Counted from the first letter of the stretch, positions 21,970 through 61,140 are shown. The stretch is DNA of 64,000 nucleotides from Pseudomonadota bacterium (GCA_021323865.1 JAJPKF010000024.1:9207-73206); one strand, 5' to 3'. A program made the numbers and translations. The notes: generated by a model from the letters alone, not told the origin.

Positions 21970-22305
21970 GATGCGGCTCTCCGCGTGGCTTACTCCAGCA
22001 TAGAGAAGCCACGACTGGCGGTCGGATGGCGGCTGGACGCGATTGTCACTCTCAAAGCCGGCTCAACGGTGGCCCCGACGAAGTGTCCTCCCGCAGTTCC
22101 ATGAAGTGAACGGTGAGCCTCCTGCCGATTGCGAACGACGTCCCAGAGGGACTTAGGTTCTGGCCGCGCGTTCCCGCCGTCTGCAGGAAAAGCGGCTGCA
22201 GCCACCATTCCCGACCACCGTCCAGCGGCCGAAGGATCGCCAGTCCGCGCCCTGGACGCGGCGCGATGGAGCGTAGTACGCCCGTTGGCTGCATCCGTAC
22301 ATCCT

Positions 22306-22334
22306 TTGACAAAGCGACGAGTGCGGCGTACAAT
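22306..22334 (+). promoter_or_regulatory. consensus sigma-70 type promoter (TTGACA-17-TACAAT)
   Basis: tTTGACAaagcgacgagtgcggcgTACAATg has perfect -35 and -10 hexamers with a 17-nt spacer. It lies ~40 nt upstream of the ATG at 22374. Confidence 0.5.
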
Positions 22335-22373
22335 GAACGAGAGCCGTCCGCGGAGAGAGAGCCGAGCAGCGCG

Positions 22374-22772
22374 ATGAATATCCCTACCCGCAACATGGCC
22401 ATGCGCAAGGCTGATCCGGAGAAGGTCATCGCGCGCTACGCCGAGCTGCGCAATCTCGAGCGGACCGGGCGCGAGTTCGGCATCACCCGAGAGCGGGTTC
22501 GACAGATCGTCAATCGAGCCGGCATCTCCACCGGCCGGCAGCTGAAGCCGAAGCCGGAGCGCAAGACCCGCCTCTGCAAGGAGTGTGGCGATCCCGTCGC
22601 TTCCGCCCACAGCCTGTACTGCTCAACCCATCGTTTGGAGAAACACAAGCGGCGCTACCGGGCGATCAAGGCGGACCCGGAGAAGTACGCACATTGGCGT
22701 GATCTGCTGAAGAAGTACGACCGGCGTCGCAAGATTCGTCTGCAGGAGCAGGCAGAGGCAGCTCCCGCCTAG
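22374..22772 (+). CDS. small DNA-binding protein with sigma-70 region-4-like HTH and C-terminal zinc-ribbon/basic tail
   Basis: LERTGREFGITRERVRQIVNRAG resembles sigma region 4.2. It is followed by CKECGDP...CSTH and a Lys/Arg-rich tail. The SD GGAGAGAGAG precedes ATG 22374. The track ORF (22113..) is over-extended. Confidence 0.55.
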   Translation: MNIPTRNMAMRKADPEKVIARYAELRNLERTGREFGITRERVRQIVNRAGISTGRQLKPKPERKTRLCKECGDPVASAHSLYCSTHRLEKHKRRYRAIKADPEKYAHWRDLLKKYDRRRKIRLQEQAEAAPA

Positions 22773-22882
22773 GAGACGCTTCCGCTCCTAACGGCCCTGG
22801 GACGGGCATTCAACCCGCCCGTCATTGGTCAGCCTCCAGGGTATAAGGGGCCGACTTCTGAGGCCCTGTTGGGCTGATCCGA

Positions 22883-24061
22883 CTAGCGGACGGCCGTCGC
22901 CCGGCTGTCGAGCGCGTTCAATGCCGCGTCCAGATCGGCGAGCAGGTCCTCGACGTCCTCAATGCCGACCGAGAGCCGCACGAGGCCGTCGCTGATGCCG
23001 GCCGCCTCGCGGGCTTCCTTGGGGACCGAGGCGTGAGTCATGACGGCCGGGTGATCGGCCAGCGACTCGACGCCGCCCAGGCTCTCCGCCAGGGCGAAGA
23101 GCTGCAACGACCGCATGAATCGCGAAGCCCCCTCTAAGCCACCCGCGACCTCGACGGTAACGATGCCGCCAAAGCCGGACATCTGGCGCGCGGCCACGTC
23201 ATGGCCGGGGTGTTCCTCCAGGCCCGGATACAACACCCGAGTCACCACGTCCGTTCGCCCGGCCAGGTAGCGGGCCACCGCCGCGGCGTTTTGCTGGTGG
23301 CGCTCCATGCGCACGGCGAGTGTCTTCAGGCCGCGCAACAGCAGCCAGCAATCCATGGGGCCGGGTACGGCGCCGATGGCGTTTTGGTGAAACTTGAGCC
23401 GGTCGTGCACCTCGACATCGGCCAGGCTGACCGTTCCCATGACCAGGTCGCTGTGACCGCCGAGGTACTTGGTCGCGCTGTACAGGGCGATATCGGCGCC
23501 CAGCTCCAGCGGCCGCTGGAGGTAGGGACTGGCGAAGGTGTTGTCCACGGCCAAAAGGGCGCCATGAGCGTGGCCAATCTCGGCCATGTGCCGGATATCG
23601 ACGATCTTGAGCAGGGGATTGGTGGGCGACTCGATCCAGATCAGCCGGGTCTCGGGACACACGACCCGCTCGACCTCCTCCGGTCGAGTGGCGTCAACGA
23701 AATCGAAGCGCAGGCCGTACTTCCGATACACGCGCTCGAACAGCCGGTAGGTGCCGCCGTAGCAGTCGTCGGAAACGATCACGTGATCGCCGGGACCGAA
23801 CAGCGCCATCACCGTGGCTTCAGCCGCCATGCCCGAAGCGAACGCGAGCGCCCCGGCGGCCCCGTCGAGCGACGCCAGCGCGGTCTGGAGGGCAGATCTG
23901 GTGGGATTGTCGGTGCGCGAGTACTCGTAGCCCCGGTGCTGCCCGATGTCGGCTTGGGCATAGGTCGAGGTCTGATAGATGGGCACGGTCACCGAGCCGG
24001 TTTGGGGGTCAGGCTCCTGACCGGCATGGATCGCGCGAGTGCTGAACCCTTCGGGTTTCAC
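22883..24061 (-). CDS. cystathionine gamma-lyase / gamma-synthase (Cys/Met-metabolism PLP enzyme)
   Basis: PLP-lysine context YSATKYLGGHSDL and the family blocks IWIESPTNPLL and AVDNTFASPY. The GTG start at 24061 overlaps the CBS stop (GTGA coupling). The track ORF is extended upstream through the CBS gene in another frame. Confidence 0.85.
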   Translation of the reverse strand: MKPEGFSTRAIHAGQEPDPQTGSVTVPIYQTSTYAQADIGQHRGYEYSRTDNPTRSALQTALASLDGAAGALAFASGMAAEATVMALFGPGDHVIVSDDCYGGTYRLFERVYRKYGLRFDFVDATRPEEVERVVCPETRLIWIESPTNPLLKIVDIRHMAEIGHAHGALLAVDNTFASPYLQRPLELGADIALYSATKYLGGHSDLVMGTVSLADVEVHDRLKFHQNAIGAVPGPMDCWLLLRGLKTLAVRMERHQQNAAAVARYLAGRTDVVTRVLYPGLEEHPGHDVAARQMSGFGGIVTVEVAGGLEGASRFMRSLQLFALAESLGGVESLADHPAVMTHASVPKEAREAAGISDGLVRLSVGIEDVEDLLADLDAALNALDSRATAVR

Positions 24062-25473
24062 TGTGCCGCCCGGTTGTGGGCGATGAACTCGAGCAGGTCC
24101 GAGCGGGTAATCACCCCCACGGGCCGGTTGCCCTGCACGGCGATCAGGGCCGAGTCGGCGCCCAGCAGCGGCTCGACCACCGCCTCCACACTGTCGTTTA
24201 GATCGACCAGATCGAGGGGCGCATCCATCACATCTCCGACCTGATGCTCGACCATGGACGGATCCCTGAATACGCTGGCCAGCAGCGACTTCTCCTGAAT
24301 GCTGCCCACAATATCGTCGACCCGCTGCACCAGGCCCCTGCCTCCGACGGTCGAGCCATCTCCATCGGCCGTCAGAAGGGCGACGGGCATCTGGGAGATG
24401 CCATACTCCTGGAGCATATCGATCGCCTGGCCCACGCGGGAGGTCGGTGTGACCGCGACCATCTCCGGGATGTCGCCGTGACGGACACGGAGCAGGTCGG
24501 CCACCCGGGCCGAGGGCAGGCGTTCCAGATAGCCGTTGTCCTGCATCCATTGGTCGGAGAAGACTTTGGATAGATAGTTCCGGCCCGTGTCGGGAAGCAG
24601 GATGACCATGAGCGCGTGCTCGTCGAGATCCCTGGCGACCTCGAGCGCGGCAACCAAAGCGCTCCCGCCCGAGCCTCCCACCAAGATACCTTCCTCGCGG
24701 GTAACTCGCCGGGCAGCCCGGAACGAGTCCCGATCGGTCACCCGCACCCAGCGATCGATGATGCCGGGGTCGAATGTCCCCGGCCAGAAGTCCTCGCCGA
24801 TGCCCTCGACCTTGTAGGGCCGGATCTCACCGCCCGAGAGGAGCGAGCCTTCGGGATCGGCGCCGACCACCGTGACGTCAGGATTGCGCTCCTTGAGATA
24901 GCGCCCGGTGCCGGAAATGGTGCCGCCCGTGCCCACGCCGGCCACGAAGTGGGTGATGGCCCCGTCGGTCTGCTCCCAAATCTCGGGACCGGTGGTGGCA
25001 TAGTGAGTGTCCGGATTGGCCTGGTTGTAGTACTGGTTTGGCTGGAAGCCGCCCGGAGTTTCGAGGGCGAGCCGGTCGGCCACGCGGTAATAGCTGTCGG
25101 GTGATTCGGGCGGCACGGCCGTGGGTGTGATGACCACCTCGGCGCCATAGGCCTTGAGGAGCGCGATCTTCTCGGCGCTCATCTTGTCGGGCATCACGAA
25201 GATCGTCCGGTAGCCCTTGATGGCGGCGGCAATGGCCAGTCCCACTCCCGTGTTGCCGGACGTGGGTTCGATGATGGTGCCGCCCGGCCGCAGCAGGCCG
25301 CGCCGCTCGGCGTCGTCGATCATGCGGATGCCGATCCGGTCCTTGACGCTGCCGCCCGGGTTGAGGCTTTCCAGCTTGACGAGCATGGTCGGTTTCAATC
25401 CCCGCGAAACGCGCTGAAGCCGCACGAGGGGCGTGTTGCCGATGAGGTCGAGGAGGCTCTCGCGTACCTCCAT
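24058..25473 (-). CDS. cystathionine beta-synthase with tandem C-terminal CBS domains
   Basis: PLP fold-II motifs (LESLNPGGSVKDRIG, GNTGVGLA) and two C-terminal CBS motifs. Confidence 0.9.
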   Translation of the reverse strand: MEVRESLLDLIGNTPLVRLQRVSRGLKPTMLVKLESLNPGGSVKDRIGIRMIDDAERRGLLRPGGTIIEPTSGNTGVGLAIAAAIKGYRTIFVMPDKMSAEKIALLKAYGAEVVITPTAVPPESPDSYYRVADRLALETPGGFQPNQYYNQANPDTHYATTGPEIWEQTDGAITHFVAGVGTGGTISGTGRYLKERNPDVTVVGADPEGSLLSGGEIRPYKVEGIGEDFWPGTFDPGIIDRWVRVTDRDSFRAARRVTREEGILVGGSGGSALVAALEVARDLDEHALMVILLPDTGRNYLSKVFSDQWMQDNGYLERLPSARVADLLRVRHGDIPEMVAVTPTSRVGQAIDMLQEYGISQMPVALLTADGDGSTVGGRGLVQRVDDIVGSIQEKSLLASVFRDPSMVEHQVGDVMDAPLDLVDLNDSVEAVVEPLLGADSALIAVQGNRPVGVITRSDLLEFIAHNRAAQ

Positions 25474-26787
25474 CTAAAACTGCCTGGGATCAACCCAGTC
25501 GCGGCCCACGATGACCACAACGGGTTGGGAGTAGGGGAGGGACTGCGCGGTGACGTGGGCCCCCAGGAGGTCTCCGGCCATTCGCGCCACGAAGTCGCCG
25601 CCTCCCCGGGAGTTGTTCTTGATGACGTGTGTTTGTGTGTAGCCCGAGCTGGCCGCGTTAGCAACCTGGGTCACGTCGAAGCCTGAGGCTCGCATCCAGG
25701 CGGCCGCCTGAGCGGCCGCGCCGGGCATGCCGCTGCCGTTGAGGACGGCGATTGGCCGGGAGGCCAGATCGGGGTCCTGGAACGTCTGCCGCGCAATCCA
25801 GTGAATGCGAGGCCAGTTGGGCAGCAGGACGTCGGCCCCGCCCGCGGTCGTGTAGTTCGAGACCGCGTTGTTGGCGTAATTCAGGGCAGATCGATGGACG
25901 TGAGATTTGGGAGCGGTCATGACCAGCCGCGCCAGATAGGTGAGATCCGGATAGGGGAAATTGGTGTCGACGGCCTGACCGAGCGCTGCCAGTATGCCGG
26001 GAAGGTTGATGAGAGTGGTGGGCCGCAGCATCTGCTGCTTGAGGGCCACCAGCAGCTGCTGCTGACGCTGATTGCGACCCAGGTCTCCCAGCGGATCGTC
26101 GTGACGTGTGCGTACGTACTCCAGCGCCAGCTGTCCGTTCATGTGCTGGACGCCGGCTCGGATATGGAGCGGTGCGTAGCCGTAGCCGGTCGGTGCCGGA
26201 TAGAAGGGATCGTCAATGCGCCGCTTGACGTCGATGGTGACACCGCCGGCGGCGTCAATCACCTTTTGAAAGCCGGTGAACTTGATGATCGCGTAGTAGC
26301 GGATGGGCATGTTCACGATGCTCTCCGCCGTCCGGATGAGCTTCTTCGTGCCGCCATATCCGTAGGCGTCGTTGACGCGATCCGGCCCCACGCCGGGAAT
26401 GGTGACCCATAGGTCCCGCGGGATAGACAGCATGCGAACGGAGCCGCTTCCGGGCAGGATGGACACCACCATCATGGTGTCGGTGTGGGGGAACTGGCCG
26501 GCCATGCCGGGCCGCTCGTCCAGGCCTACGACCACCATATTGACCGGGTCGGTCCCGTTCCAGGCGACGGCGCCCGACTGTGTTTTGACAAAGAAAGAGG
26601 TGAGGCTGCGCGACAGCGTGGGCGAGAACGCCACCAGCAGCGTGGCCACGATCAGCAACGCGAAGAAGCTCAGGACCAGCATGAGCAACCGCGTGAGCAG
26701 CGATCGGACCGTGATCGCGGAGGCGCCGGAGGCGCCCGTGAACAGGTGGTAGGAGCTGGTGGGCGCTCGGGTCTGGGTCGCCGTCAT
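25474..26787 (-). CDS. LytR-CpsA-Psr (LCP) family cell-wall polymer ligase with LytR_C domain
   Basis: N-terminal TM helix. The LCP core is MVVVGLDERPGMAGQFPHTDTMMVVSILPGSGSVRMLSIPRDLWV...VNDAYGYGG. The C-terminal LytR_C-like region is LNGSGMPGAAAQ. Confidence 0.85.
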   Translation of the reverse strand: MTATQTRAPTSSYHLFTGASGASAITVRSLLTRLLMLVLSFFALLIVATLLVAFSPTLSRSLTSFFVKTQSGAVAWNGTDPVNMVVVGLDERPGMAGQFPHTDTMMVVSILPGSGSVRMLSIPRDLWVTIPGVGPDRVNDAYGYGGTKKLIRTAESIVNMPIRYYAIIKFTGFQKVIDAAGGVTIDVKRRIDDPFYPAPTGYGYAPLHIRAGVQHMNGQLALEYVRTRHDDPLGDLGRNQRQQQLLVALKQQMLRPTTLINLPGILAALGQAVDTNFPYPDLTYLARLVMTAPKSHVHRSALNYANNAVSNYTTAGGADVLLPNWPRIHWIARQTFQDPDLASRPIAVLNGSGMPGAAAQAAAWMRASGFDVTQVANAASSGYTQTHVIKNNSRGGGDFVARMAGDLLGAHVTAQSLPYSQPVVVIVGRDWVDPRQF

Positions 26788-26796
26788 CCAGATAGT

Positions 26797-27861
26797 CTAG
26801 TCGCTGAAGGCTGGCAGAGCGGGCTTCAGATTCTCGACTGGAATGAGCGCGGAGCCGCCTTCCGCGAGGGCCACCGTGGCAGCGGGGCCGGAGTATCCCG
26901 AGGCCGCGCGGCCGGCCGGGTCAACGGAGACGATCTCGCCCTCGGTCAGCCGGAGACCGGAGAGGAAGGTCACCCGGGCTCCCGCGCCAAGCTCATCGGG
27001 CTCGATCGCGACCGACCCGCCATGTTGTCCGGTCAGGATCAAGGCGCCCAGCCGCCGTGATTCCTTGTGGCAGACGACCGCGGCCGGCAGACCGGCCGCC
27101 GGTCGCAGGAGATTCCGCGGTCCGGAATGGATCCCCATGCCGCCATAGCCGGATAGCAGCAGCAGTGTGGGCGCTCTCCCCGAGAGACCTCGGCGGGCCA
27201 CCACCGTGCCGTGTGAGACGCCGCCGACGACCAGGGCAACAGGCTGATGCTCGCCGAAGCTGTCTTGGACCAGCTGCAAAAGGTCGTCTGGAGGCGGATC
27301 AAGAAAGGCGAGGATGCGGGGAGGCATGTCCGCGGCAGCAGACCCAAGACGGGCAAGATCGGCCGAGGCAGATGTCCCCTCGATGACCGTCAGCACGCCG
27401 AATGCGTCCGGCCCGTCCACCAGGGCGGCGTCCAGCACCCTTCCCTCCACCGCCACGCCGATGCCCTGATCGTTGACGGATGCGACTTGGCCGGCGACCC
27501 GCGACGTGACGGTGTGCTCCACCTCTGTCGGACGAATGACCACCACACCGTCCTGTCCCAGCACGCCCCGAATGACGCCTGAGACGGGCGATACCACCTG
27601 GCGTTTGCCGAAGCCGAATGGGCCGGAGGATCGAGCGAGCACCTCACCCTCGGTCACACTATCGCCCCGGCGCTTGGCAATCGCCCGAGCAAGCTGCCTG
27701 CCCTGCCGCTTGATCGCCGGGCCAACCTCCACGGTCTGCAACTGCGATTCGGGCGTCGTTCGCGCGATCGGGTCGCCGGCCAGCACCGCCTGGCCCTCCT
27801 GGACCAGGGGCGTAAACCGGCTCATGGCGTGCAGGTACACGAATGGGTTAGCTGGGACCAC
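26797..27861 (-). CDS. hypothetical protein (no recognisable domain; Gly/Val-rich, possibly beta-helical)
   Basis: 354-aa ORF with high GC3. It is operonic, sitting 10 nt upstream of the LCP gene and 4 nt downstream of the ASKHA ATPase gene. Confidence 0.5.
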   Translation of the reverse strand: MVPANPFVYLHAMSRFTPLVQEGQAVLAGDPIARTTPESQLQTVEVGPAIKRQGRQLARAIAKRRGDSVTEGEVLARSSGPFGFGKRQVVSPVSGVIRGVLGQDGVVVIRPTEVEHTVTSRVAGQVASVNDQGIGVAVEGRVLDAALVDGPDAFGVLTVIEGTSASADLARLGSAAADMPPRILAFLDPPPDDLLQLVQDSFGEHQPVALVVGGVSHGTVVARRGLSGRAPTLLLLSGYGGMGIHSGPRNLLRPAAGLPAAVVCHKESRRLGALILTGQHGGSVAIEPDELGAGARVTFLSGLRLTEGEIVSVDPAGRAASGYSGPAATVALAEGGSALIPVENLKPALPAFSD

Positions 27862-27865
27862 GTTT

Positions 27866-29611
27866 TTAGTCCAAGCCCGACAGGACTTCGGCGTCGACGG
27901 CGTCCATCACCTGGAGCCATTCCATGAGATGCGCCTGCCGGATCAAGTCGTCGGCGGAGAGGACCATCGGCCTGCCGCGCGCGTCCACGACCAACCCCAG
28001 AATCCCGCCCTCAACGGTCTGACCATCCCCTTCCTCGCCACCATCGACCTGACCGCGGGCCCAATATCCGTCGCTCTCCTGCAGCCGGAAGGAGACCCGG
28101 CGACTGGTGGTGACTCGCAGTGAGGAGACCTGGCCGGGGCGGAGAGGGATGAGCATCAGGGAACCGAAGCGTACGTCGAAGGTGGTGCGCTCCGCAGTGC
28201 CTTCCACGCTCAGGATCTCAACCTCGATCTCTCCCACGGTTTCGCCGTCCGTCGCCCGGCCCATGAGGCTCAGGCAGGGACCCAGGTCGACGAGGGTATC
28301 GCTCTTGAGGAGAGAGAGCCCGGCCTGAGTATCGTGCGGGGCGAGGGCGCCGACGCGGGCCAGAATGCCCGACGCATCTGCCAGCAACCGGCACGGCCCG
28401 GCAGGCTGCAGCGCATCCAAGAGAACCAGCGCCGTCTGACCGAATCGAGGATACGCGGCCGCGGGACCGGTGACGGCGACCAGCTCCGGCACAACCGTCC
28501 ACTGAGGATTGCGCGTCGCAATGGCACATTCCCGGGCGACCGCCTGGTCGATAAGCAAACCCTGGACGTCGCCGGCCCGAGGCTCACGTCGAAGTGCGCG
28601 ATTGCCCAGGTAGTCCATCAGCCCCTCCGGGGGCAGGTCAAAGGGCAGCCAGCGAAGGAGAGCGGACGGTGATATCGCATCGAGCACCCGAGAGAACCCC
28701 TCGCCCGTACCCAGACGAGTGTGGCCCGTGAGAACGGACTGATCGCCTCCGTTCCTTCGCTCGAGGGCTTGATCGTGCGCCACCACGATATGGGTCTCGG
28801 GTCCGCCCAGGTCGAGGAGGCAGGTGTTGGCCTGCGCGGTGGTCTGGAGGGTGCATGCCGCGGCTTCTAAGGCGGTGGGGCGAGTCTCCAGCGGTCCGCG
28901 GGTCCCGGTTCGAGCGCGCAACGGCTCCAGCCGCTGCCGCACCCGCTCGGCTACCGCGGTTCGAGCCGCGGCGAGATCGAAGCCGCTGTGCCCCCAATCG
29001 ACCGTGCCCGCGGTGATCAGCTGGGCCGCCGAGGTGAGATCGTTGTTGAGTGTGGTCGCGACTTCCGTGGGGCCGCTGAAGAGGAGCAGGGCCCGACCGG
29101 CCGGTGTCTTGATCCTGACGGCGCGCAGAAGCGCCGAGAGCAGCTCGGCCTCTTGGCGGCTTCGCAGGGAGGCGAGAATGACCTCCAGTGTGCAGCCGTC
29201 CAGGGCACGGGCGGCGGCTCCGGCGCCGGATGGTGCGCGGCCACGCGTGTCGAGGATCAACTCCAGGCTCACGTCTAGGTCGGGAAGCTGTGCGGCCCGC
29301 TCTCGGAGGGCCCGAAGGCCGTCCACGGTCCCGGCGATCAGCACGGTGGGCAGGGTGAGAGTGGCCACGGCTGCCACCAGCGGCGGCGCCGCCGAGCGAT
29401 CGACCATGCACCAGCCGGACAGCCGCTCCAAGGTCCTCAGGGCCTCACCAAGGCCGGCGGTGGGGTCAGCTCCGTTTGCGCCCGCCCTCGAGTCGAGAAC
29501 CAGCCGCTGCCTACCTTCCGAGGGAGCCATAACGCCCACACGGACATAGTCCTCACCGATGTCGGCCAGCAGTCCCGCGGTCATGCCGGGCCGCTGGGCG
29601 GTTTCCGTCAT
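27866..29611 (-). CDS. actin-fold (ASKHA) ATPase, FtsA/PilM-like core with ~180-aa C-terminal extension
   Basis: Phosphate-1 GLLADIGEDYVRVGV, phosphate-2 CLLDLGGPETHIVVAHD and an adenosine-like LVAVTGPAAAYP are spaced as in FtsA-type ASKHA proteins. Confidence 0.55.
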   Translation of the reverse strand: MTETAQRPGMTAGLLADIGEDYVRVGVMAPSEGRQRLVLDSRAGANGADPTAGLGEALRTLERLSGWCMVDRSAAPPLVAAVATLTLPTVLIAGTVDGLRALRERAAQLPDLDVSLELILDTRGRAPSGAGAAARALDGCTLEVILASLRSRQEAELLSALLRAVRIKTPAGRALLLFSGPTEVATTLNNDLTSAAQLITAGTVDWGHSGFDLAAARTAVAERVRQRLEPLRARTGTRGPLETRPTALEAAACTLQTTAQANTCLLDLGGPETHIVVAHDQALERRNGGDQSVLTGHTRLGTGEGFSRVLDAISPSALLRWLPFDLPPEGLMDYLGNRALRREPRAGDVQGLLIDQAVARECAIATRNPQWTVVPELVAVTGPAAAYPRFGQTALVLLDALQPAGPCRLLADASGILARVGALAPHDTQAGLSLLKSDTLVDLGPCLSLMGRATDGETVGEIEVEILSVEGTAERTTFDVRFGSLMLIPLRPGQVSSLRVTTSRRVSFRLQESDGYWARGQVDGGEEGDGQTVEGGILGLVVDARGRPMVLSADDLIRQAHLMEWLQVMDAVDAEVLSGLD

Positions 29612-29618
29612 GGCCCGC

Positions 29619-30089
29619 TCACGAACCGGGCTCGGGCCGGCCGTGATAGCCGGACTTCAGACGGACGAGCAGGCTGGGGTCGACCCGGTCGAAGGGGCGG
29701 AACATCACTCGAACCTCAGGTGGCTCATGAAGCTCCGGAACGGCGATGCTGATCTCGGTGTGATCATGTTCATCGGCGGCGCCCGACTGACTCTCGGGCG
29801 GTTCCGTCGGCACGAACGCCGGCGCATCCGACGGCTTGAATGCAAATCCGTCGCCGTCTGAGGACAGGATCGGTCCAGGCAGGTTTTGACCCATCGCCGG
29901 CGTGCCGGCTCCCTCCCGAGGGGACTGAGCTTCCCCGCTCTCCTCGACCGCGGAGACGCCGCTGTGACCCACCTCCGGCTCCGGAGGCGGAGCATCACCT
30001 CCGGCAACCTCGAGGGAGGCGCCGCACTTCGGGCAGGTGTCATCAGCGGCGCCCACTGGGGCGGCGCAGACGCGACAGGTTCGAGCCAT
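29619..30089 (-). CDS. zinc-ribbon protein with acidic disordered linker and conserved C-terminal motif
   Basis: CRVCAAPV...CPKCGASL ribbon, a long Pro/Glu/Ser-rich linker, and a C-terminal VMFRPFDRVDPSLLVRLKSGYHG. It is the first gene of the operon. Confidence 0.5.
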   Translation of the reverse strand: MARTCRVCAAPVGAADDTCPKCGASLEVAGGDAPPPEPEVGHSGVSAVEESGEAQSPREGAGTPAMGQNLPGPILSSDGDGFAFKPSDAPAFVPTEPPESQSGAADEHDHTEISIAVPELHEPPEVRVMFRPFDRVDPSLLVRLKSGYHGRPEPGS

Positions 30090-30186
30090 GGCGTTTCCCA
30101 GAGGTGGCCCTGAAATCGCATCAATCTAGCACTTTCGTGGCGTCGCGGACGCGGGTGCTATCCTCTGGCACGTCGGGAGGGTGGCG

Positions 30187-30516
30187 ATGGCAGTTCGGCG
30201 CGGCAAGCGCCGTCGAAAAGAGCGACGGCGCGTCTGGACGGATGGGGAGCGGCCGATCGCACCGCAGCCCCAGCCGGCTGCGACACGCCCGGAGCCGAGG
30301 CGTCGTGGTGGGCGTCCGCTGGCGCAACGATCGCCCATCGTCTCGGGCGCCTTCTGCCTGCTTTGCGTGGTAGGAACGGTATTCACGGCCACCACCTTCC
30401 CGCTCAACGGGCGGCACCTGCTGAACGTCTTCTTTCTGTGCCTCTACGCAGTTCTGGCCATCGTGCAGGGCTGGCTCACCTTCGCGATCCGCCGTGCGCG
30501 CGGCAGCTGGAGTTGA
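30187..30516 (+). CDS. small membrane protein (basic N-terminus, two TM helices)
   Basis: GGGAGGG is 7 nt upstream of ATG 30187. The N-terminus is RRGKRRRKERRR, followed by two hydrophobic helices. Confidence 0.4.
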   Translation: MAVRRGKRRRKERRRVWTDGERPIAPQPQPAATRPEPRRRGGRPLAQRSPIVSGAFCLLCVVGTVFTATTFPLNGRHLLNVFFLCLYAVLAIVQGWLTFAIRRARGSWS

Positions 30517-30534
30517 CCCACCGCTCAGGAGCAA

Positions 30535-31773
30535 CTAAGCTCGACCTCGGACTAGATCGATCAGGCGACCCAGAATGCGGCCTCCGTCCACCCGCAGGCC
30601 GTTGTGTTCGTACTCGCTGGTGACCCACGGTCGGAGACCGCTGATCGTCGCCCCGGTTTCCTTGGACAACTCGTACTCAACGTAAAGGTCATCCCAGTAG
30701 ATAGCGGCCGCGGCCGGCACCTCGTTTCGGCGAAGCGCCTCGACGTCGTAGAGGCGCCCCCATTCGTGTCCTGCCAGGATGTCGGCCGCCTCCTTGAGAG
30801 GGCGGAGCGCGGCTTCGTCGTCAAACACCGAAGGGAAAATGTGCTCGCCGGTGAACTGGTCCGGCTCCCGGAGATCGTCCGGGAGGAGTCGCCCTGCGGA
30901 CCAGCGGGTCGTTCCTCCGTCGGCGTAGCAGGCTTCGTGAAGGATGGCGTATAGCGGGTTGCGCCCGAAGTGAGTCGATGCCTCGACGTCATAGCGAAAT
31001 GCCGGAGAATCCGGCGGAAGCTCGACGATGTGATGGAGCTGGTCGGCCCCGTCACTCCGTCCCAGAAGACCGCCAAGCTGGCGGAAGCGCTCGGGCGTGA
31101 GCCGGTCGCCCGAGGGGAGCCGAACGTCCGAGCCGGCCAGCCGATCGTGTATTCGACGGACACGGTCTCGATCCTCGGGATAGCGCTCGTAGTAGCGACG
31201 AGTCCGTTGTCGAACACGCGGATAGGTGTGCTTGTAGACGTCGTCGACGTCATGTCCGACGGGCGCAAGACCACCCGTGAAGAATGCCTCCCGGAGACCC
31301 TCCGGCGCAATGGAGAGATACGTCGTCAGGCAGAAGCCGCCGAAGCTCTGGCCCAGGACCGACCACCCATCGACGCCCATCGCCTTCCTGATCCACTCGG
31401 CGTCTCGAACGATGGAATCGGCCCGAAAGTGGGTCAGATACTCGGCCTGCTGTTCGGGAGACATGCCCGGAAGCGCCCCAACCGGCGTCGAGCGGCCCGT
31501 GCCCCGCTGATCCAGCAGCAGGACGCGGTAGTCCTGCAGCGCTCGAGCAACCCACCCGGAGGGAGGTCCAGTGACGCGGGCGGCTTCGCCCCCTGGCCCG
31601 CCCTGGAGGAACAAGAGATACGGCCGCTCTTGGCCCTCCGGATCGGCGATTTCTCGCACGAACACGTTGATGGTGCGGCCGTCGGGTCGTTCGTGATCCA
31701 GAGGGACGTCGAATTCGTGCTCGACGGTGATCATGCCCGGAGAGCGGTACCGGGAGGGCAGCTCCTCGCTCAA
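30535..31773 (-). CDS. alpha/beta-hydrolase, proline iminopeptidase (S33) family
   Basis: LFLQGGPGG motif and nucleophile elbow GQSFGG. Confidence 0.8.
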   Translation of the reverse strand: MSEELPSRYRSPGMITVEHEFDVPLDHERPDGRTINVFVREIADPEGQERPYLLFLQGGPGGEAARVTGPPSGWVARALQDYRVLLLDQRGTGRSTPVGALPGMSPEQQAEYLTHFRADSIVRDAEWIRKAMGVDGWSVLGQSFGGFCLTTYLSIAPEGLREAFFTGGLAPVGHDVDDVYKHTYPRVRQRTRRYYERYPEDRDRVRRIHDRLAGSDVRLPSGDRLTPERFRQLGGLLGRSDGADQLHHIVELPPDSPAFRYDVEASTHFGRNPLYAILHEACYADGGTTRWSAGRLLPDDLREPDQFTGEHIFPSVFDDEAALRPLKEAADILAGHEWGRLYDVEALRRNEVPAAAAIYWDDLYVEYELSKETGATISGLRPWVTSEYEHNGLRVDGGRILGRLIDLVRGRA

Positions 31774-32179
31774 CGCGTCGCCCTCGGCTGGCGGTCGCCA
31801 GCGGGGTGAAACCGAGCCGGTCTGTGGTGTCCAGTATTCATGATTGCCCCGCGAATGGATTCAGTCCACGTTTCAGTCTGTGGCATGAGCCAGTCCGACC
31901 AGCTCTGCCATACACCGGACGGAAATCAGCACACTACAGGCGCAAGTCTCGCTCCGCAAACCCAGCTGGTCAGGAATCAACAAAGCCAGGAGCTAAGGGG
32001 AAACCCGCGGCTCTTTCTAACTCCTCTGCTGATAAGTTACTTGACTCTCTTCTTAGCAAGGTTTTGGAGTACACTTGGGTGAGGCTCAGGCTGAGCCATC
32101 TCATTCACCTTCAATCTCCGGCCGTGAGAATGAGGCCGGAGCATTGAGCCCTCGGTCCTCAAAGGAGGGACCACTCGTG

Positions 32180-33100
32180 ATGCAGCGACGCAACTGGTAC
32201 GGACGAGACGTCAGCCTTCAGATCCGGATGGCCGTGACGGTCCTCCTGCTGATCGTGACCTTCCTGATCTTCGGCGCTGTGCTCTTCGCTTTCACCAAGG
32301 TCTACCTGTTTCTGATCATCATCCCGCTGATTGGGTTGGTGGTTCAGTATTTCGCCTCCGACAAGCTGGTGCTGGCCGCGACGGGCGCCAAGGAGGTATC
32401 GCCTCAGCAGGCCCCACAGCTGCACGACATGGTGGCGCGGCTTGCCCAGCTGGCCGATCTGCCCAAGCCCAAGATCGCGCTGATGGACAGCGCCATGCCC
32501 AACGCTTTTGCCACGGGCCGCAATCCCAAGCACGCCGTGGTGGCCGTGACCTCGGGCCTCCTAAACCGGCTCACCCCCGCGGAGCTGGAGGCCGTTCTGG
32601 GCCATGAGCTGACTCACATCCGCAACCGCGACATGACGGTGATGACCATGGCCAGCTCGATTCTGGCCGTCGCCTCGTGGCTCACCCAGATTCTCATCTG
32701 GACCGGGATGTGGGGCGGCATGGGTGGCGGCTTCGGCGACCGCCGGCGCGACAACAACCAGGCCTACGGCCTTCTGGTGGTGCTGGCCGTCTCTGTTCTG
32801 ACCTGGTTCGTCAGCTACGTCCTCATCAACGCCCTGTCCCGATATCGCGAATACGCCGCCGATCGCGGCAGCGCCATCCTGACCGGCTCGCCCGAGAATT
32901 TGATCTCGGCCCTGGTCCGCATCAGCGGCGACATGGCGAGGGTTCCGACGGAAGACCTGCGTAAGGCCCAGCCCATGAGCGCGCTCTACATCGCGCCTCC
33001 GCAGCGTGAGTACCTGACCGAGGTGTTCTCGGATCATCCGTCTCTGCAGCACCGGATCGCCCGGCTCCAGAGTTTGCAACAGCAGATGGTGGCCGTATGA
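32180..33100 (+). CDS. htpX: zinc metalloprotease HtpX (M48)
   Basis: HELTHIRNRD zinc motif, four TM helices, and NPKHAVVAVTSGLL. The AAAGGAGGG SD is 10 nt upstream of ATG 32180. The track ORF starts at an upstream TTG. Confidence 0.9.
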   Translation: MQRRNWYGRDVSLQIRMAVTVLLLIVTFLIFGAVLFAFTKVYLFLIIIPLIGLVVQYFASDKLVLAATGAKEVSPQQAPQLHDMVARLAQLADLPKPKIALMDSAMPNAFATGRNPKHAVVAVTSGLLNRLTPAELEAVLGHELTHIRNRDMTVMTMASSILAVASWLTQILIWTGMWGGMGGGFGDRRRDNNQAYGLLVVLAVSVLTWFVSYVLINALSRYREYAADRGSAILTGSPENLISALVRISGDMARVPTEDLRKAQPMSALYIAPPQREYLTEVFSDHPSLQHRIARLQSLQQQMVAV

Positions 33101-33672
33101 GCCTGCTTGACGCCCTGCTTGGGCGTGACAAGCCGGCCAAATCGAAGACGGAAGCGCTCTTTGCCCTGACCACCTGCGAGCCCACGCTGGTGACGGAGCT
33201 AAACCTGTCGCCGACCAACCACGCCGCGATCTCCTTCCGGCCCGTATCCAGCGGCGACTGGACCTCCATGGAGCAGGAGATCGACGACCTGCTGAAGGTC
33301 AGCACCCGCGACGCGCCCCTGGAGTGGAAGTCGTTCGCCGACGACTACGGCTTCAAGTGGATCGTGCTCAAGGCCAACGAGTTTGAGAACCTGGTGGCCA
33401 CCATCAACATGATCGGTGACGAGCTGGGCAGCCACGGGTTTGGGGAGCAGCTGCTGGCCGCGATTGTTCAGCTGAAGGACCAGAATGGCCGCTCCGCCTA
33501 TCTGATCTACAACTACAAGCGAGGAACCTTCTATCCCTTCGTGCCCAATCCGGATCGAGCTCAGGACCGCCTCAATGCCGAGGAGTTTCGCATGAGCGGC
33601 GTGCTGAAGGGAGAGCTACCCATTGAAAAGGAGATCGAAGCCTGGTATCCCCTATGGGGAGTGCCCCTCTGA
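33097..33672 (+). CDS. hypothetical protein co-transcribed with htpX
   Basis: Its ATG overlaps the htpX stop (ATGA). It is a 191-aa soluble protein with no recognised domain. Confidence 0.6.
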   Translation: MSLLDALLGRDKPAKSKTEALFALTTCEPTLVTELNLSPTNHAAISFRPVSSGDWTSMEQEIDDLLKVSTRDAPLEWKSFADDYGFKWIVLKANEFENLVATINMIGDELGSHGFGEQLLAAIVQLKDQNGRSAYLIYNYKRGTFYPFVPNPDRAQDRLNAEEFRMSGVLKGELPIEKEIEAWYPLWGVPL

Positions 33673-33722
33673 CCTATCGCCATACTGGTCTTGGTCGCGC
33701 GCAATCTCGACCTCTTGAAAGG

Positions 33723-34295
33723 TCAGATGCCTGGCGTTCTGCCATCGAGCAATTCCTTGAATAGACCCGCCGCGGCCGCGTAGACGGCCCCGACGCCGAG
33801 GCCGATGCCCGCTCCCGATATGACGTCGAAGGGATAGTGAACGCCGACATAGACTCGGGAGTAAGAGATGGTTAGCCCGAGAGCCAACAGCCCACTGGCC
33901 TGTTCCGGGTATGAGGCAATCAGTGTGGTCATGGCGGCGGCCGAGGATGCCGCGTGGGCCGAGGGCCAGGAGTGCTGTTTCTCCCGGCCCACGAGAAGGG
34001 CCGGACGCAGCTTGGAACGCCGGTAGGGGCGCTGCCTCCGGATGGCCGGCTTGAGCAGCAGGTTCACGATCCCCTGGGCCGTGAGCGTGGCGGCCATGGT
34101 GAGCGCCGCCGCCCGGCGTGCCCGCCTTCCGCCCAATAACGCCATGGCGCCACAGATCGCGATCCAGGCGCTGCTCTTGGTCCCTGCCCGAGTTGCGCTG
34201 ACCATAATCGGGTCCAGCGCTTCCGACCGCAGCCGTCTGTGGATGAGCCGATAGAGCCAACCGTCGATGCCGGGCAGGAGCCGTAGCAGCCCCAT
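33723..34295 (-). CDS. PAP2-family lipid phosphatase
   Basis: PAP2 motifs KxxxxxxRP (KPAIRRQRP), PSAH (SWPSAHAAS) and SRxxxxxHxxxD-like (SRVYVGVHYPFDVISG). Confidence 0.8.
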   Translation of the reverse strand: MGLLRLLPGIDGWLYRLIHRRLRSEALDPIMVSATRAGTKSSAWIAICGAMALLGGRRARRAAALTMAATLTAQGIVNLLLKPAIRRQRPYRRSKLRPALLVGREKQHSWPSAHAASSAAAMTTLIASYPEQASGLLALGLTISYSRVYVGVHYPFDVISGAGIGLGVGAVYAAAAGLFKELLDGRTPGI

Positions 34296-35179
34296 TACGT
34301 TGTTGCGCCTTGGGGCGCCATGACCCGCACTGCGCCGGGAAGGATGCGAACGGCCGCCGGGCTTTGCGCCTTGATCTCGCCATCCAGTGTGATGGCTTCC
34401 GGATAGGCGACGTCGATCCGCGCTTCGGAAACCTCGACCACCGGCCGGCCCGGCATTCCTAGGTGACGCCCGAAGAAGATGGCCGGCAGCATGCGCAGCA
34501 CCGATCCCAGCCGCAGGTCGTCTATGCAGAGCACCGTGAGGCGGACACCATCGGACTCGGCAAGACCCGTCCGATGCTGCAGCCGGCTGCTGGGGATGAC
34601 CGTCACCTGAAAGGCATGAAGGCTGCGTCGGGTGCCCTCCGCTTCCATATGGACCGACAGGCGCCTTCGGCGGAAGTAGACGACCAGCGAGGCGACGGGG
34701 TAGGAGAGCCGGCCCAGGAGCAGGCGTAGACGCTGCGACACACGCGCGAAGTCCACATTGAGACCCATGATGGCCGCATGGGCAAAGTAGCGGCCGTTGA
34801 CCTCACCGACGTCGATGCGGCGGGGCGCTCCGCGGGCGATGACGCCCACCGCGGCAGGAATGGTTCGGGGCACGTCAAGGCTGCGCAGGAAGTTATTGGA
34901 CGTGCCCGCTGGAATGACGCCCAGAATTACATCCTGGCCGAGAATGGCCTCCACGACCGAGCCGACCGTACCGTCGCCGCCGAACGCGATGACCAGGCTG
35001 GTTCCTCTGGCTCGTGCGTCGCGAACGCTCTCGACGATGGAGGTCCGGCTGAGATCGAAGCGCACATCCGTCACGTCGATGCCGGCGGCGCGGAGGCTGG
35101 TCAGCGACCGGAAGAAGCTCCGGCGCGCGCTGCCCGAGCGGATGTTGGCGAACATGATCGCCCGGCGCGTCTCCTGCAT
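34295..35179 (-). CDS. diacylglycerol-kinase catalytic-domain (YegS/DgkA-like) lipid kinase
   Basis: DAGK_cat signature LVIAFGGDGTVGSVVEAI. It is coupled to the downstream PAP2 gene. Confidence 0.8.
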   Translation of the reverse strand: MQETRRAIMFANIRSGSARRSFFRSLTSLRAAGIDVTDVRFDLSRTSIVESVRDARARGTSLVIAFGGDGTVGSVVEAILGQDVILGVIPAGTSNNFLRSLDVPRTIPAAVGVIARGAPRRIDVGEVNGRYFAHAAIMGLNVDFARVSQRLRLLLGRLSYPVASLVVYFRRRRLSVHMEAEGTRRSLHAFQVTVIPSSRLQHRTGLAESDGVRLTVLCIDDLRLGSVLRMLPAIFFGRHLGMPGRPVVEVSEARIDVAYPEAITLDGEIKAQSPAAVRILPGAVRVMAPQGATT

Positions 35180-35425
35180 CTATTCCTCTCTCGCCGCCTC
35201 ACGGGGAGTGTCGACCGGGAGCGTGGTTCCCAGGGCAAAGCCCAGACAGATTCCGGCCGCCAGAGGAATGCGGATGGCGAGATCGACCGGCAGGGAGAGC
35301 AGGACAATGACCATGATGCCCGCCGTCACGACCGTCACCATCAGGCGGACGGCGAGCCGATAGATGAGAATACCGGAGATGCAGGCGCCGACGACCAGCC
35401 CCAGGGTGAGGAGAACCGGGAACAT
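35180..35425 (-). CDS. small membrane protein (three TM helices)
   Basis: 81 aa, hydrophobic. Its stop abuts the lipid-kinase start (operon). Confidence 0.45.
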   Translation of the reverse strand: MFPVLLTLGLVVGACISGILIYRLAVRLMVTVVTAGIMVIVLLSLPVDLAIRIPLAAGICLGFALGTTLPVDTPREAAREE

Positions 35426-35485
35426 GGCTTCCGCCTATTCCCGGCTGCCCGTGGGGGCGTGCATGCCGTTTGAAATGGAGCGCCC

Positions 35486-36262
35486 TTGACCGCAAACGCG
35501 GACTTCAGCCTCTCGGTCGTGCTGCCGGCACACAACGAGGCGGGCAACATCGAGCCCGTCGTGCGGGACGCACTGGAGAAGCTGCCCGAGATGGTGGATC
35601 GGTTCGAGATCCTGATTGTCGACGATGGGAGCCGCGACGAGACCGGCCGCATCGCCGACCGCCTCGCGGCGGGGGACGAGCGAGTGAAGGTCATTCATCA
35701 CCCCAAGAATAGGGGCTATGGTTGTGCCTGGCGGACCGGCATCTCGGTGGCATCCGGCAGCTGGATCTTCTTTATGGACTCCGACCGACAGTTCGACATC
35801 GGCGAGATCGCCAAGCTGCTGCCCTACCGCGACGGCCACGATGTGGTGACCGGCTTTCGGATCGCTCGCCGCGATCCCTACTACCGATTCCTGGTCGGCT
35901 CCTGCTTCAACATCCTGGTGAAGGTGCTGTTCAAAGTGCACCTGCGGGACATCGATTGCGGCTTCAAGATGTTCCGTGCGCCCCTGCTCAAATCGATGCG
36001 CCTCGAAAGCCCGGGCGCGCTGATCAACACCGAGATCCACGCCAAGGCCAACCTGGCAGGAGCGCGGTTGAAGGAGGTGGGCATCAACCACTATCCCCGC
36101 CGCGTGGGCCGGCAGTCGGGAACCAAGCCCAAGGTGATGCTGCGGGCGGCCTGGGAGATCATTCAGCTGCGTCGCCAGCTGGGTCGCTACAAGGCCTCGA
36201 GGTTGGAGGGGATCGAAGCCGAGGGGTTCCCGGCCACCGAGACCGGCACGCATACTTCGTGA
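35486..36262 (+). CDS. family-2 glycosyltransferase (polyprenyl-phosphate sugar transferase-like)
   Basis: SVVLPAHNE, ILIVDDGSRDET and FMDSDRQ (DxD) motifs. Confidence 0.85.
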   Translation: MTANADFSLSVVLPAHNEAGNIEPVVRDALEKLPEMVDRFEILIVDDGSRDETGRIADRLAAGDERVKVIHHPKNRGYGCAWRTGISVASGSWIFFMDSDRQFDIGEIAKLLPYRDGHDVVTGFRIARRDPYYRFLVGSCFNILVKVLFKVHLRDIDCGFKMFRAPLLKSMRLESPGALINTEIHAKANLAGARLKEVGINHYPRRVGRQSGTKPKVMLRAAWEIIQLRRQLGRYKASRLEGIEAEGFPATETGTHTS

Positions 36263-38599: not shown

Positions 38600-38787
38600 G
38601 CATACATGGCCTTCGGGGCAGGGTGAGACGAGGAATCGCCAATTCCCGATCGGCGGTAGAGCCCGCGAGCGCGTCAGCGCAGGATCTGGTGAGACTCCAG
38701 AGCCGACGGTACAGTCCGGATGGAAGAAGGCACCATGCCCGCTCCCGGCGGGTCCTTCCCCGAAGTGCGTGCACTCGGGGTTTTTCA
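38600..38787 (+). ncRNA. FMN riboswitch (RFN element) with terminator/SD-sequestering expression platform
   Basis: The aptamer (~38608-38730) matches the RFN consensus block by block: CUUCGGGGCAGGGUGA, AUCGGCGGUAGAGCCCGCGAGC, GGAUCUGG...GAGCCGACGGUACAGUCCGGAUGGAAGAAGG. The B. subtilis ribD leader has ...UUCGGGGCAGGGUGAAAUUCCC-ACCGGCGGUA...AGCCCGUGAC...GCCGACAGUGAAAGUCUGGAUGGGAGAAGG for comparison. It is followed by the terminator at 38757-38784. Confidence 0.85.
38757..38784 (+). terminator. intrinsic terminator of FMN riboswitch expression platform
   Basis: CCCCGAAGUGC-gu-GCACUCGGGG (10-bp stem with one bulge) followed by UUUUU. The 3' arm contains the GGGG that would serve as the SD for the TTG at 38788. 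Confidence 0.75.
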
Positions 38788-60865: not shown

Positions 60866-61140
60866 GGTGATCGTGCTAGGCGGGGAGCTAGCGGTGCCCT
60901 GTACCCGCAATCCGCTATAGCGGGGCGTAATTCCGCGCTTGAGGCCTGGCTCAGCCAACACTGTTCGGTTTGTTCGACGTTGAAGACCGGGTTCTGCGCG
61001 GCGGAGCCCCGTGAACCCCGTCAGGTCCGGAAGGAAGCAGCGGTAAGCGGCCAGCTCCGGGTGACGCAGAGGAGCCTGGTCTGAGCCGGCATGCTGGATA
61101 AGCTGAGTGGACCAGTGTCGAGAGTGCGGTGCACGATCAC
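60866..61140 (+). ncRNA. ffs: signal recognition particle RNA, large Bacillus-type (with Alu domain)
   Basis: The domain IV core CCCGUCAGGUCCGGAAGGAAGCAGCGG is present. The Alu-domain region GAUCGUGCUAGGCGGGGAGCUAGCGGUGCCCUGUACCCGCAAUCCGCUAUAGCGGGGC aligns almost base-for-base with B. subtilis scRNA. The 5'/3' closing helix is GGUGAUCGUGC...GCACGAUCACC. The protein ORF 60770-61084 covering it is spurious. Confidence 0.8.

Follow-up and report, generated by a model that had tools for sequence, protein, structure and literature searches.

A GlmL/MutL-family ATPase and its partner protein as a conserved gene pair of Chloroflexota, with a divergent copy in an LCP operon

What do three closely packed genes that lead into a cell wall ligase gene do together? 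The genes lie on the minus strand at positions 26797-30089 of a 64,000-nucleotide (nt) stretch of DNA filed under Pseudomonadota bacterium (GCA_021323865.1, JAJPKF010000024.1:9207-73206). We call the whole stretch the window, and positions are those of the window unless a locus is named. Open reading frame (ORF) calls give a small acidic protein of 156 amino acids (aa; 29619-30089), an ATPase of 581 aa (27866-29611) and a protein of 354 aa that we call P3 (26797-27861), followed by a LytR-CpsA-Psr (LCP) glycopolymer ligase. An earlier reading of the same DNA, the original prediction, had taken the ATPase for an FtsA-like protein and the LCP gene as a sign of function, and had proposed an undescribed cytoskeletal or envelope-assembly system. 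Judged by the comparisons reported here, the module is real, co-inherited and built on the ATPase and an obligate partner, P3, and its ATPase is assigned to another family.

Co-conservation of the genes provides the first line of evidence. A pattern scan based on a three-sequence alignment, with one genome kept per species, gave 80 loci, to which three metagenomic loci and the window were added for a set of 84. The 80 scan loci all come from metagenome-assembled genomes labeled Chloroflexota, except for one "uncultured bacterium" and one "uncultured proteobacterium" (locus L004), and they cover Chloroflexia, Anaerolineae, Ktedonobacteria, Caldilineae, Thermoflexia and Promineifilaceae. Each of the 83 loci has one ATPase gene; three of these genes are incomplete, being split or truncated where the contig stops, and the others are full-length. 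In 78 of the 83, the gene that follows on the same strand encodes a P3 homolog, and in a few more there is one gene in between, about 80 in total; the loci without a downstream homolog are contig ends. That the three genes are unrelated hypotheticals brought together by chance has nothing in its favor other than the weakness of the individual domain matches of the window proteins. It is contradicted by the joint presence of the genes in about 80 of 83 loci, by a fusion found in nature and by a gene order that several bacterial classes share. For the ATPase-P3 pair these comparisons already refute it, and for the trio we regard its probability as negligible. The view that these are not random hypotheticals is thus borne out for the ATPase and P3.

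The fusion is found in P0154 (L086:2029-5016), a 995-aa protein whose single chain continues from the ATPase into P3 (hhalign probability 99.9 %, E 1.5e-34, with nearly all of P3 covered). Its metagenomic contig, of 36 % GC, also encodes a protein of about 99 aa, a DUF6754 protein, a membrane protein of about 210 aa and the membrane domain of a zinc-ribbon protein, counterparts of components of the Chloroflexota cluster described below, in a different order. In a second case, P0108 (1,304 aa), a signal peptide, an extracellular region and a transmembrane (TM) segment precede the ATPase. A P3 homolog is encoded directly upstream (hhalign 99.9 %; L087:1100-6371 spans both genes), and the neighboring SpoIIT and SpoIID genes suggest that the contig belongs to a spore-forming Firmicute. 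These two fusion contigs show that the ATPase-P3 pair exists outside Chloroflexota. Co-inheritance together with fusion in a single chain makes it very probable that the two proteins form a complex, and the contigs argue strongly that ATPase and P3 act as one unit, working with membrane proteins.

To which family does the ATPase belong? The sole Pfam match of the window protein is to MutL (PF13941; residues 237 to 437, E 1.5e-5), at 24.4 bits for a cut-off of 27, and no NCBIfam model matches it. The Pfam name refers to the L component of glutamate mutase, not to the mismatch-repair protein. An indexed homology search gave few relatives, but an exhaustive profile search over 1.84 billion cluster representatives gave 2,716 matches at E ≤ 1e-3 and 775 at E ≤ 1e-30, and the best 150 are mostly 570 to 700 aa long and align end to end. 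When 50 diverse relatives were scanned individually, PF13941 matched all 50 (best E 1.3e-76). The NCBIfam models for accessory GlmL (accessory_GlmL), for a GlmL-related ornithine-degradation protein and TIGR01319 matched 48, 46 and 46 of them, respectively (family identifiers TIGR01319 and NF040745). None of the 50 matched the FtsA, SHS2_FTSA, PilM, MreB or EutA models (FtsA and PilM at E ≤ 0.01). Since the window ATPase falls below the Pfam and NCBIfam cut-offs and its relatives match, its membership is transitive, by way of the family. On these profiles the middle protein is placed in the GlmL/MutL family and not with FtsA or PilM, and the FtsA-like label is to be dropped.

The actin-type fold is another matter, and here the original prediction was right: the protein has the ASKHA fold. 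The quoted phosphate-2 (residues 267 to 276) and adenosine (378 to 388) motifs are recognizable, with D267, G269 and T273 of the former and the adenosine loop retained. The phosphate-1 loop DIGEDYVRVGV is indeed present at residues 17 to 27 (29531-29563, minus strand), but it is degenerate rather than clear. The family consensus is L-x-x-D-[CIV]-G-S-x-x-T-[RK] for phosphate-1 and D-[LV]-G-x-x-x-T for phosphate-2. The window copy keeps D17 and G19 of phosphate-1, has Glu in place of Ser20 and has Val in place of Thr23, which is Thr in 77 of 83 relatives. Because the conserved Ser and Thr are lost, the window ATPase may bind rather than hydrolyze nucleotide.

The ATPases of the module differ from the Pfam MutL model by a C-terminal region that is conserved in all relatives and lies outside that model. 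In the window protein it covers residues 438 to 581 (27869-28300, minus strand) and is predicted to be a β-rich domain with a terminal helix. An extension had been foreseen, at about 180 aa; counted from the end of the Pfam match at residue 437 it is closer to 145 aa. A low-confidence structure model places strands at residues 441 to 502 and helices at 555 to 580. The region contains the signature motif GGxxGLxxDARGRP, GGILGLVVDARGRP in the window protein (residues 535 to 548; 27968-28009, minus strand), in which G539, D543, R545, G546 and R547 are invariant among 50 diverse members, 90 % or more of which also keep G535, G536 and P548. The motif is found in 82 of 83 loci, the exception being L069, where the gene is split across two ORFs. 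The terminal helix has a conserved Trp, which the window copy keeps as W565. No relatives of this domain were detected by PDB sequence searches or by comparison with P3; homology to P3 is ruled out by an hhalign probability of 1 %. A resemblance of the DARGRP strand to the Thermus hypothetical protein 2eis (TTHB207; E 0.42) is weak and was taken as chance.

Structure searches contributed little to this placement. The ATPase was modeled from an alignment of five sequences, with low confidence (predicted local distance difference test, pLDDT, 51.5), and with this model Foldseek gave no PDB match at E ≤ 1e-3. The matches above that threshold, to which we give no weight, include Ppx/GppA, PilM (E 0.012), Hsp70 and the glycerol dehydratase reactivase 1nbw (E 0.02), and PDB sequence searches with the ATPase gave chance-level matches only. 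In comparison with FtsA and PilM, the window ATPase differs not only in its C-terminal domain but also in its inserted α/β domain (residues 87 to 202, in the low-confidence model).

The third protein had been described as having no recognizable domain. The AlphaFold model of P3 is confident at residues 8 to 140 and 290 to 350 and poor between them, and both confident parts can be named. The N-terminal one is a barrel-sandwich-hybrid domain of the NqrA/RnfC type (27442-27840, minus strand) and the C-terminal one a small β-barrel of the Tudor/KOW/SH3-like type (26812-26994, minus strand). The poorly modeled middle corresponds to an α/β region with a P...TEGFG motif that hardly varies within the family. 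An alignment-seeded search gave 30 homologs, all unnamed or annotated "hypothetical protein," and the window P3 can be aligned with them over its full length. PDB sequence searches with P3 gave matches at the level of biotinyl domains only. P3 thus has single domains in common with NqrA/RnfC and with KOW/Tudor proteins, and its overall architecture matches no solved structure. NqrA and RnfC are peripheral subunits of membrane redox pumps, and the likeness is limited to one domain: P3 lacks flavin, iron-sulfur and NADH-binding motifs, ends in a KOW/Tudor-like barrel, and has no Nqr or Rnf genes nearby. P3 is cytoplasmic.

The genes that surround the pair fall into recurrent arrangements. Most Chloroflexota (Anaerolineae, Chloroflexia, Caldilineae and Thermoflexia, among others) have the pair as the last two of seven co-directional, tightly spaced genes, which encode, in order, a protein of about 99 aa, a DUF6754 protein, a polytopic protein of about 210 aa, a zinc-ribbon protein of about 750 aa, a polytopic protein of about 226 aa, the ATPase and P3. 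In the protein of about 750 aa, a double zinc ribbon is followed by extensive disorder with up to 28 PxW[LMV] motifs, then by a TM segment, a domain of about 250 aa and a second TM segment. The cluster is present in about 40 to 56 of the 83 loci (e.g., L079:1710-9236, L012:1300-9292 and L051:1659-8155), and every one of its components is uncharacterized. Zinc-ribbon models and DUF6754 are the only curated Pfam families among the recurring neighbors, and PDB searches with the membrane domain of the zinc-ribbon protein and with DUF6754 gave nothing. PADLOC and PHROG models had no matches, and a defense-system or phage origin was rejected. No description of the ATPase subfamily, of DUF6754 or of the cluster was found in the searchable literature, in agreement with the claim of an undescribed system.

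Ktedonobacterales have a three-gene form composed of a zinc-ribbon protein of 470 to 900 aa, the ATPase and P3. Their zinc-ribbon protein has an N-terminal C4 ribbon, Pro-rich disorder, five to nine PxWL motifs, an acidic stretch and a basic amphipathic C terminus such as RGGGWLGFLRRDKR. The window has this three-gene form with a much shorter zinc-ribbon protein. No gene of the membrane cluster was found in the 64 kb by profile searches in six frames. The Ktedonobacterales zinc-ribbon proteins of L058, L071 and L076 end in GWLGFLRR-type sequences. These are similar to the long, disordered, basic tails, ending in KKRGFSLGRRR-like sequences, that some Chloroflexia ATPases carry (L022, L026, L047 and L057), and the two kinds of tail could be interchangeable membrane-targeting or docking sequences.

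Since the ATPase is a GlmL relative, the module might be a canonical reactivase of a coenzyme-B12-dependent mutase, in which P3 would be the small subunit, as DdrB is for DdrA. The near-universal matches to PF13941 and to the GlmL models among the 50 relatives fit such a role, as do the two-subunit makeup of the known reactivases DdrAB and GdrAB and the presence of glycerol dehydratase reactivase among the weak structural matches. The neighborhoods do not. Genes for B12-dependent mutases (GlmS/GlmE, OraS/OraE or KamD/KamE) are no recurring neighbor within 7 kb in the 83 loci, none is found among the ORFs listed for 22000-36000 of the window, and aminomutase, eut and pdu genes are nowhere a conserved neighbor in the 83 loci. 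P3 and membrane proteins recur instead. The extra C-terminal domain, the absence of detectable similarity between P3 and reactivase subunits, and the position of the window copy below the curated cut-offs also count against this explanation, which we consider very improbable. The original prediction had set novelty against a place among EutA/MutL proteins with known partners: the family placement is what we find, and the partners are not, with no B12 mutase near the 83 loci.

The likeness to GlmL/MutL, the accessory component of methylaspartate/glutamate mutase, thus concerns the homologous ASKHA core, in which the family keeps the D-x-G-S-x-x-T-K phosphate-1 and D-x-G-x-x-x-T phosphate-2 loops. 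Without a mutase partner and with an extra domain, the module ATPase does not qualify, in function or in architecture, as an accessory GlmL, and the window copy is further set apart by its degenerate phosphate-1 loop. DdrAB/GdrAB and EutA, which are ATP-dependent chaperones of B12 enzymes, provide the closest analogy for a non-polymerizing nucleotide switch, as an ASKHA-type large subunit with a dedicated second protein. In contrast to this similarity of plan, profile scans and PDB sequence searches gave no sequence-level match to the EutA or Ddr families, and the fold of P3, judged from its confident domains, is unrelated to that of DdrB-type subunits. What appears to be new here is the architecture, and also the context, in which a GlmL-family ASKHA protein is found.

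The upstream protein of the window, of 156 aa, comprises an N-terminal C4 zinc ribbon, a disordered linker rich in Pro, Asp and Glu (net charge -14) and a C-terminal peptide, and no hydrophobic segment was found in it. The ribbon, CxxC-x10-CxxC, is as had been proposed, with cysteines 5, 8, 19 and 22 (residues 5 to 22; 30024-30077, minus strand); the matches to Pfam zinc-ribbon families (Zn_Ribbon_1/DZR) are weak, at E 3e-3 to 3e-2, and all under the cut-offs. The C-terminal peptide VMFRPFDRVDPSLLVRLKSGYHG (residues 128 to 150; 29640-29708, minus strand) is a candidate docking motif. It had been called conserved, which holds for its core, [VT]MF[RQ]P[FL], and not for the rest. Outside the window, the core is limited to L001 and L004, where the small ORF that immediately precedes the ATPase carries it; the remaining ORFs of the 84 loci lack it. 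The small proteins of the window, L001 and L004 have only this core and their acidic character in common, and the ribbon is restricted to the window copy. The peptide may serve in docking. Homology of the small protein to the cluster protein of about 99 aa is unsupported, as it amounts to a five-residue overlap (MFRPF and xxQPF; E 0.13).

L001 and L004 are the closest relatives of the window, syntenic with it over more than 10 kb that include HtpX, PspAB, the small protein, the ATPase, P3, LCP and genes for cystathionine β-synthase (CBS) and a cystathionine γ-lyase-type enzyme (CGL). Identity between the window and these loci is 34 to 35 % for the ATPase and 26 to 33 % for P3, versus 65 to 85 % for the flanking genes, so that the divergence of the two module proteins within this lineage equals that between classes of the phylum. 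The three lineage copies keep 63 to 67 % of the family-conserved columns of the ATPase and 56 to 75 % of those of P3, for medians elsewhere of 95 % and 92 %. The L004 ATPase lacks the DxG segment, and neither the window P3 nor that of L001 retains the TEGFG motif. In this lineage both module proteins evolve unusually fast, and the window copy is best described as a divergent, reduced form of a conserved two-protein core.

Such a degree of divergence raises the question of whether the module of this lineage is a decaying or repurposed relic, which would have lost its membrane partners and its ancestral function under relaxed or altered selection. The identity values, the retention of family residues (lowest of all for the ATPase, one of the lowest for P3), the replaced Ser20 and Thr23, the missing DxG and TEGFG segments and the absence of the membrane-cluster genes from the window are all in keeping with it. 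Nevertheless, the reading frames are intact and full-length in three diverged genomes, the GGxxGLxxDARGRP motif and Trp565 are kept, the tight spacing and the operon position are conserved, and the GC content by codon position is that of expressed coding sequence. Moreover, other parts of the genome could contain the partner genes. A relic is, on balance, unlikely.

The LCP gene (25474-26787, minus strand) starts 9 nt downstream of P3, a point of likeness to LCP wall-glycopolymer ligase operons. It is a bona fide member of its family (LytR_cpsA_psr, E 2e-42; LytR_C; TIGR00350), and its product has a membrane anchor at the N terminus. This gene lies outside the conserved module: among 82 other loci, an LCP gene is found within 7 kb only in L001 and L004. 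Because it is limited to the lineage of the window, we regard the arrangement as a lineage-specific operon fusion and not as a defining feature of the module. The coupling to an LCP enzyme therefore loses the functional meaning it had been given. When gene-neighborhood conservation is checked as had been proposed, the ATPase and P3 hold together and a zinc-ribbon or disordered upstream protein recurs, but LCP does not.

These observations also bear on the idea of an FtsA/PilM-like protein of the cytoskeleton, the divisome or a pilus platform, which would polymerize at the membrane, be tethered by the zinc-ribbon peptide and organize the attachment of wall polymers by LCP. The position of the LCP gene next in the operon, the ASKHA fold with its recognizable phosphate-2 and adenosine motifs, and PilM among the weak Foldseek matches lend it some color. 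In addition, disordered, membrane-tethered partners with repeated motifs recall the way FtsA and ZipA engage peptide ligands; the association with disordered linkers, short motifs and membrane anchors is a similarity of logic only. However, the 50 members match the MutL/GlmL models and none matches FtsA, PilM or MreB, the window phosphate-1 loop is degenerate, all Foldseek matches are above E 1e-3 for a model of low confidence, and LCP is confined to the two relatives. Furthermore, ftsZ, ftsQ, pilN, pilO, pilP and pilQ are absent from the listed window ORFs and from the recurring neighbor clusters, and no partition gene occurs in any neighborhood cluster. The lack of an FtsZ, pilus or partition partner had been noted at the outset and is confirmed. 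A cytoskeletal role is therefore distinctly improbable.

The explanation that we favor, with a probability of about 0.45 for the whole package, is a GlmL-type complex of the ATPase and P3 at the cytoplasmic face of the membrane. The complex would be a nucleotide-dependent switch or an assembly chaperone, closer in action to the GlmL, EutA and DdrAB reactivases than to a filament; GlmL, EutA and DdrAB are characterized relatives that act as nucleotide switches or chaperones. It would be recruited through short linear motifs in disordered zinc-ribbon proteins, PxWL elsewhere and MF[RQ]P[FL] in the lineage of the window, and would act on or with membrane proteins, plausibly in envelope biogenesis. 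In the lineage of the window, the module has been joined to an LCP-CBS-CGL operon, and no homolog of the membrane-partner genes was found within the 64 kb.

Several points weigh against this proposal. The ATPase model is poor (pLDDT 51.5) and has no PDB match at E ≤ 1e-3, and the complex itself is deduced from synteny and fusion. The three module proteins of the window lack membrane-spanning segments and the 64 kb contain no membrane partners, so that membrane association of the window copy is an extrapolation. The envelope link depends on an LCP neighbor in only three loci, and docking through MF[RQ]P[FL] or PxWL motifs is putative. Finally, given its fast evolution and the loss of conserved residues, the window copy could differ in function from the rest of the family.

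A related reading, which we consider tenable though somewhat short of probable, gives the ATPase-P3 pair the part of engine or regulator, on the cytoplasmic side, of an unrecognized multi-component membrane machine. With its GlmL-type ASKHA nucleotide switch, the machine would serve the envelope or the assembly of membranes, a task unrelated to B12 reactivation, and the window would have a stripped derivative of it in an LCP operon. Under the same tentative reading, the parts of this machine would be DUF6754, the two polytopic proteins, the zinc-ribbon/PxWL/TM protein as an adaptor and the protein of about 99 aa as a subunit, and the machine might be ancestral to Chloroflexota and present in some other lineages.

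Whether switch, chaperone or engine, the pair is kept in nearly every sampled lineage, is tied to fixed membrane proteins and is fused in some cases, which makes it a strong candidate for a core function that has no name as yet. Chloroflexota are abundant, often grow as filaments and have an atypical envelope, and few aspects of their cell biology have been established by experiment; work on the module can start from a list of its parts, from its conserved motifs and from the natural fusions. Much of the "GlmL/MutL" family is found in a context quite different from that of the mutases, and annotations made by analogy with B12 mutase accessory proteins are probably misleading. The interest of the window copy lies mainly in its being an evolutionary end-point and in its LCP link.

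The layout of the window operon agrees with the description of three packed minus-strand genes that run into LCP, CBS and CGL. The gaps between successive genes are 7 nt (small protein to ATPase), 4 nt (ATPase to P3), 9 nt (P3 to LCP) and 0 nt (LCP to CBS), the last because the LCP stop abuts the CBS start in TAGATG (25471-25476). CBS (24058-25473) has PALP and CBS domains, so that the LCP and CBS identities stand as given; CBS and CGL are the distal operon genes (22883-25473, minus strand), and the true start of the CGL-type gene lies downstream of the listed ORF start. The pairing of a wall-polymer ligase with reverse-transsulfuration genes is odd, and the order LCP, CBS, CGL also occurs in L001 and L004. 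No terminator-like site or hairpin was found in 22000-32200, and the LCP gene is probably co-transcribed with the module. GC contents at codon positions 1, 2 and 3 are 0.75, 0.57 and 0.73 for the small protein, 0.74, 0.53 and 0.79 for the ATPase and 0.76, 0.52 and 0.78 for P3, the high/low/high pattern expected of real genes in a genome of 66 % GC. In one public annotation the start of the third gene is placed 12 codons further in, which gives a protein of 342 aa.

Upstream of the small protein, an intergenic region of about 90 nt between divergent genes (30090-30180) is presumed to contain the operon promoter; no sigma-70 consensus was found in it. The divergent gene (30181-30516, plus strand) is small and encodes an Arg-rich product with predicted membrane helices, and the gene is kept in this position in L001 (L001:1795-2118, minus strand). 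The sole strong sigma-70-like match in a 10-kb scan, TTGACA and TACAAT with a 17-nt spacer (11 of 12 positions), is at 22306-22334 on the plus strand. It sits within the ORF 22113-22772 (plus strand), just 5′ of the likely true start of the small basic protein encoded there, whose L001 counterpart has a Sigma70_r4 domain.

An α/β-hydrolase gene (Abhydrolase_1, E 3e-18; 30535-31773, minus strand) lies between the module and HtpX/PspAB. It is missing from that position in L001 and L004, so that it was either inserted locally or lost from the relatives. In the window (33723-35179, minus strand) and in L004, the module is preceded at a distance of about 4 kb by genes for a YegS/DAGK-type lipid kinase and a PAP2 phosphatase, and the unrelated L086 cluster is flanked by genes for a DAGK-type kinase and CdsA (L086:2-1652). 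As lipid-kinase genes are not enriched in the other loci, we treat this link as a probable coincidence.

No tRNA gene turned up anywhere in the 64 kb. The window encodes a large-type bacterial signal recognition particle (SRP) RNA at 60871-61136 (plus strand; RF01854, 175 bits). Large-type SRP RNA is not expected in Proteobacteria, and its presence here indicates that the "proteobacterium" label of L004 is probably wrong; the affiliation of the window itself is deduced from its relatives. A flavin mononucleotide riboswitch is located at 38605-38735 (plus strand; RF00050, 94 bits, E 2e-20).

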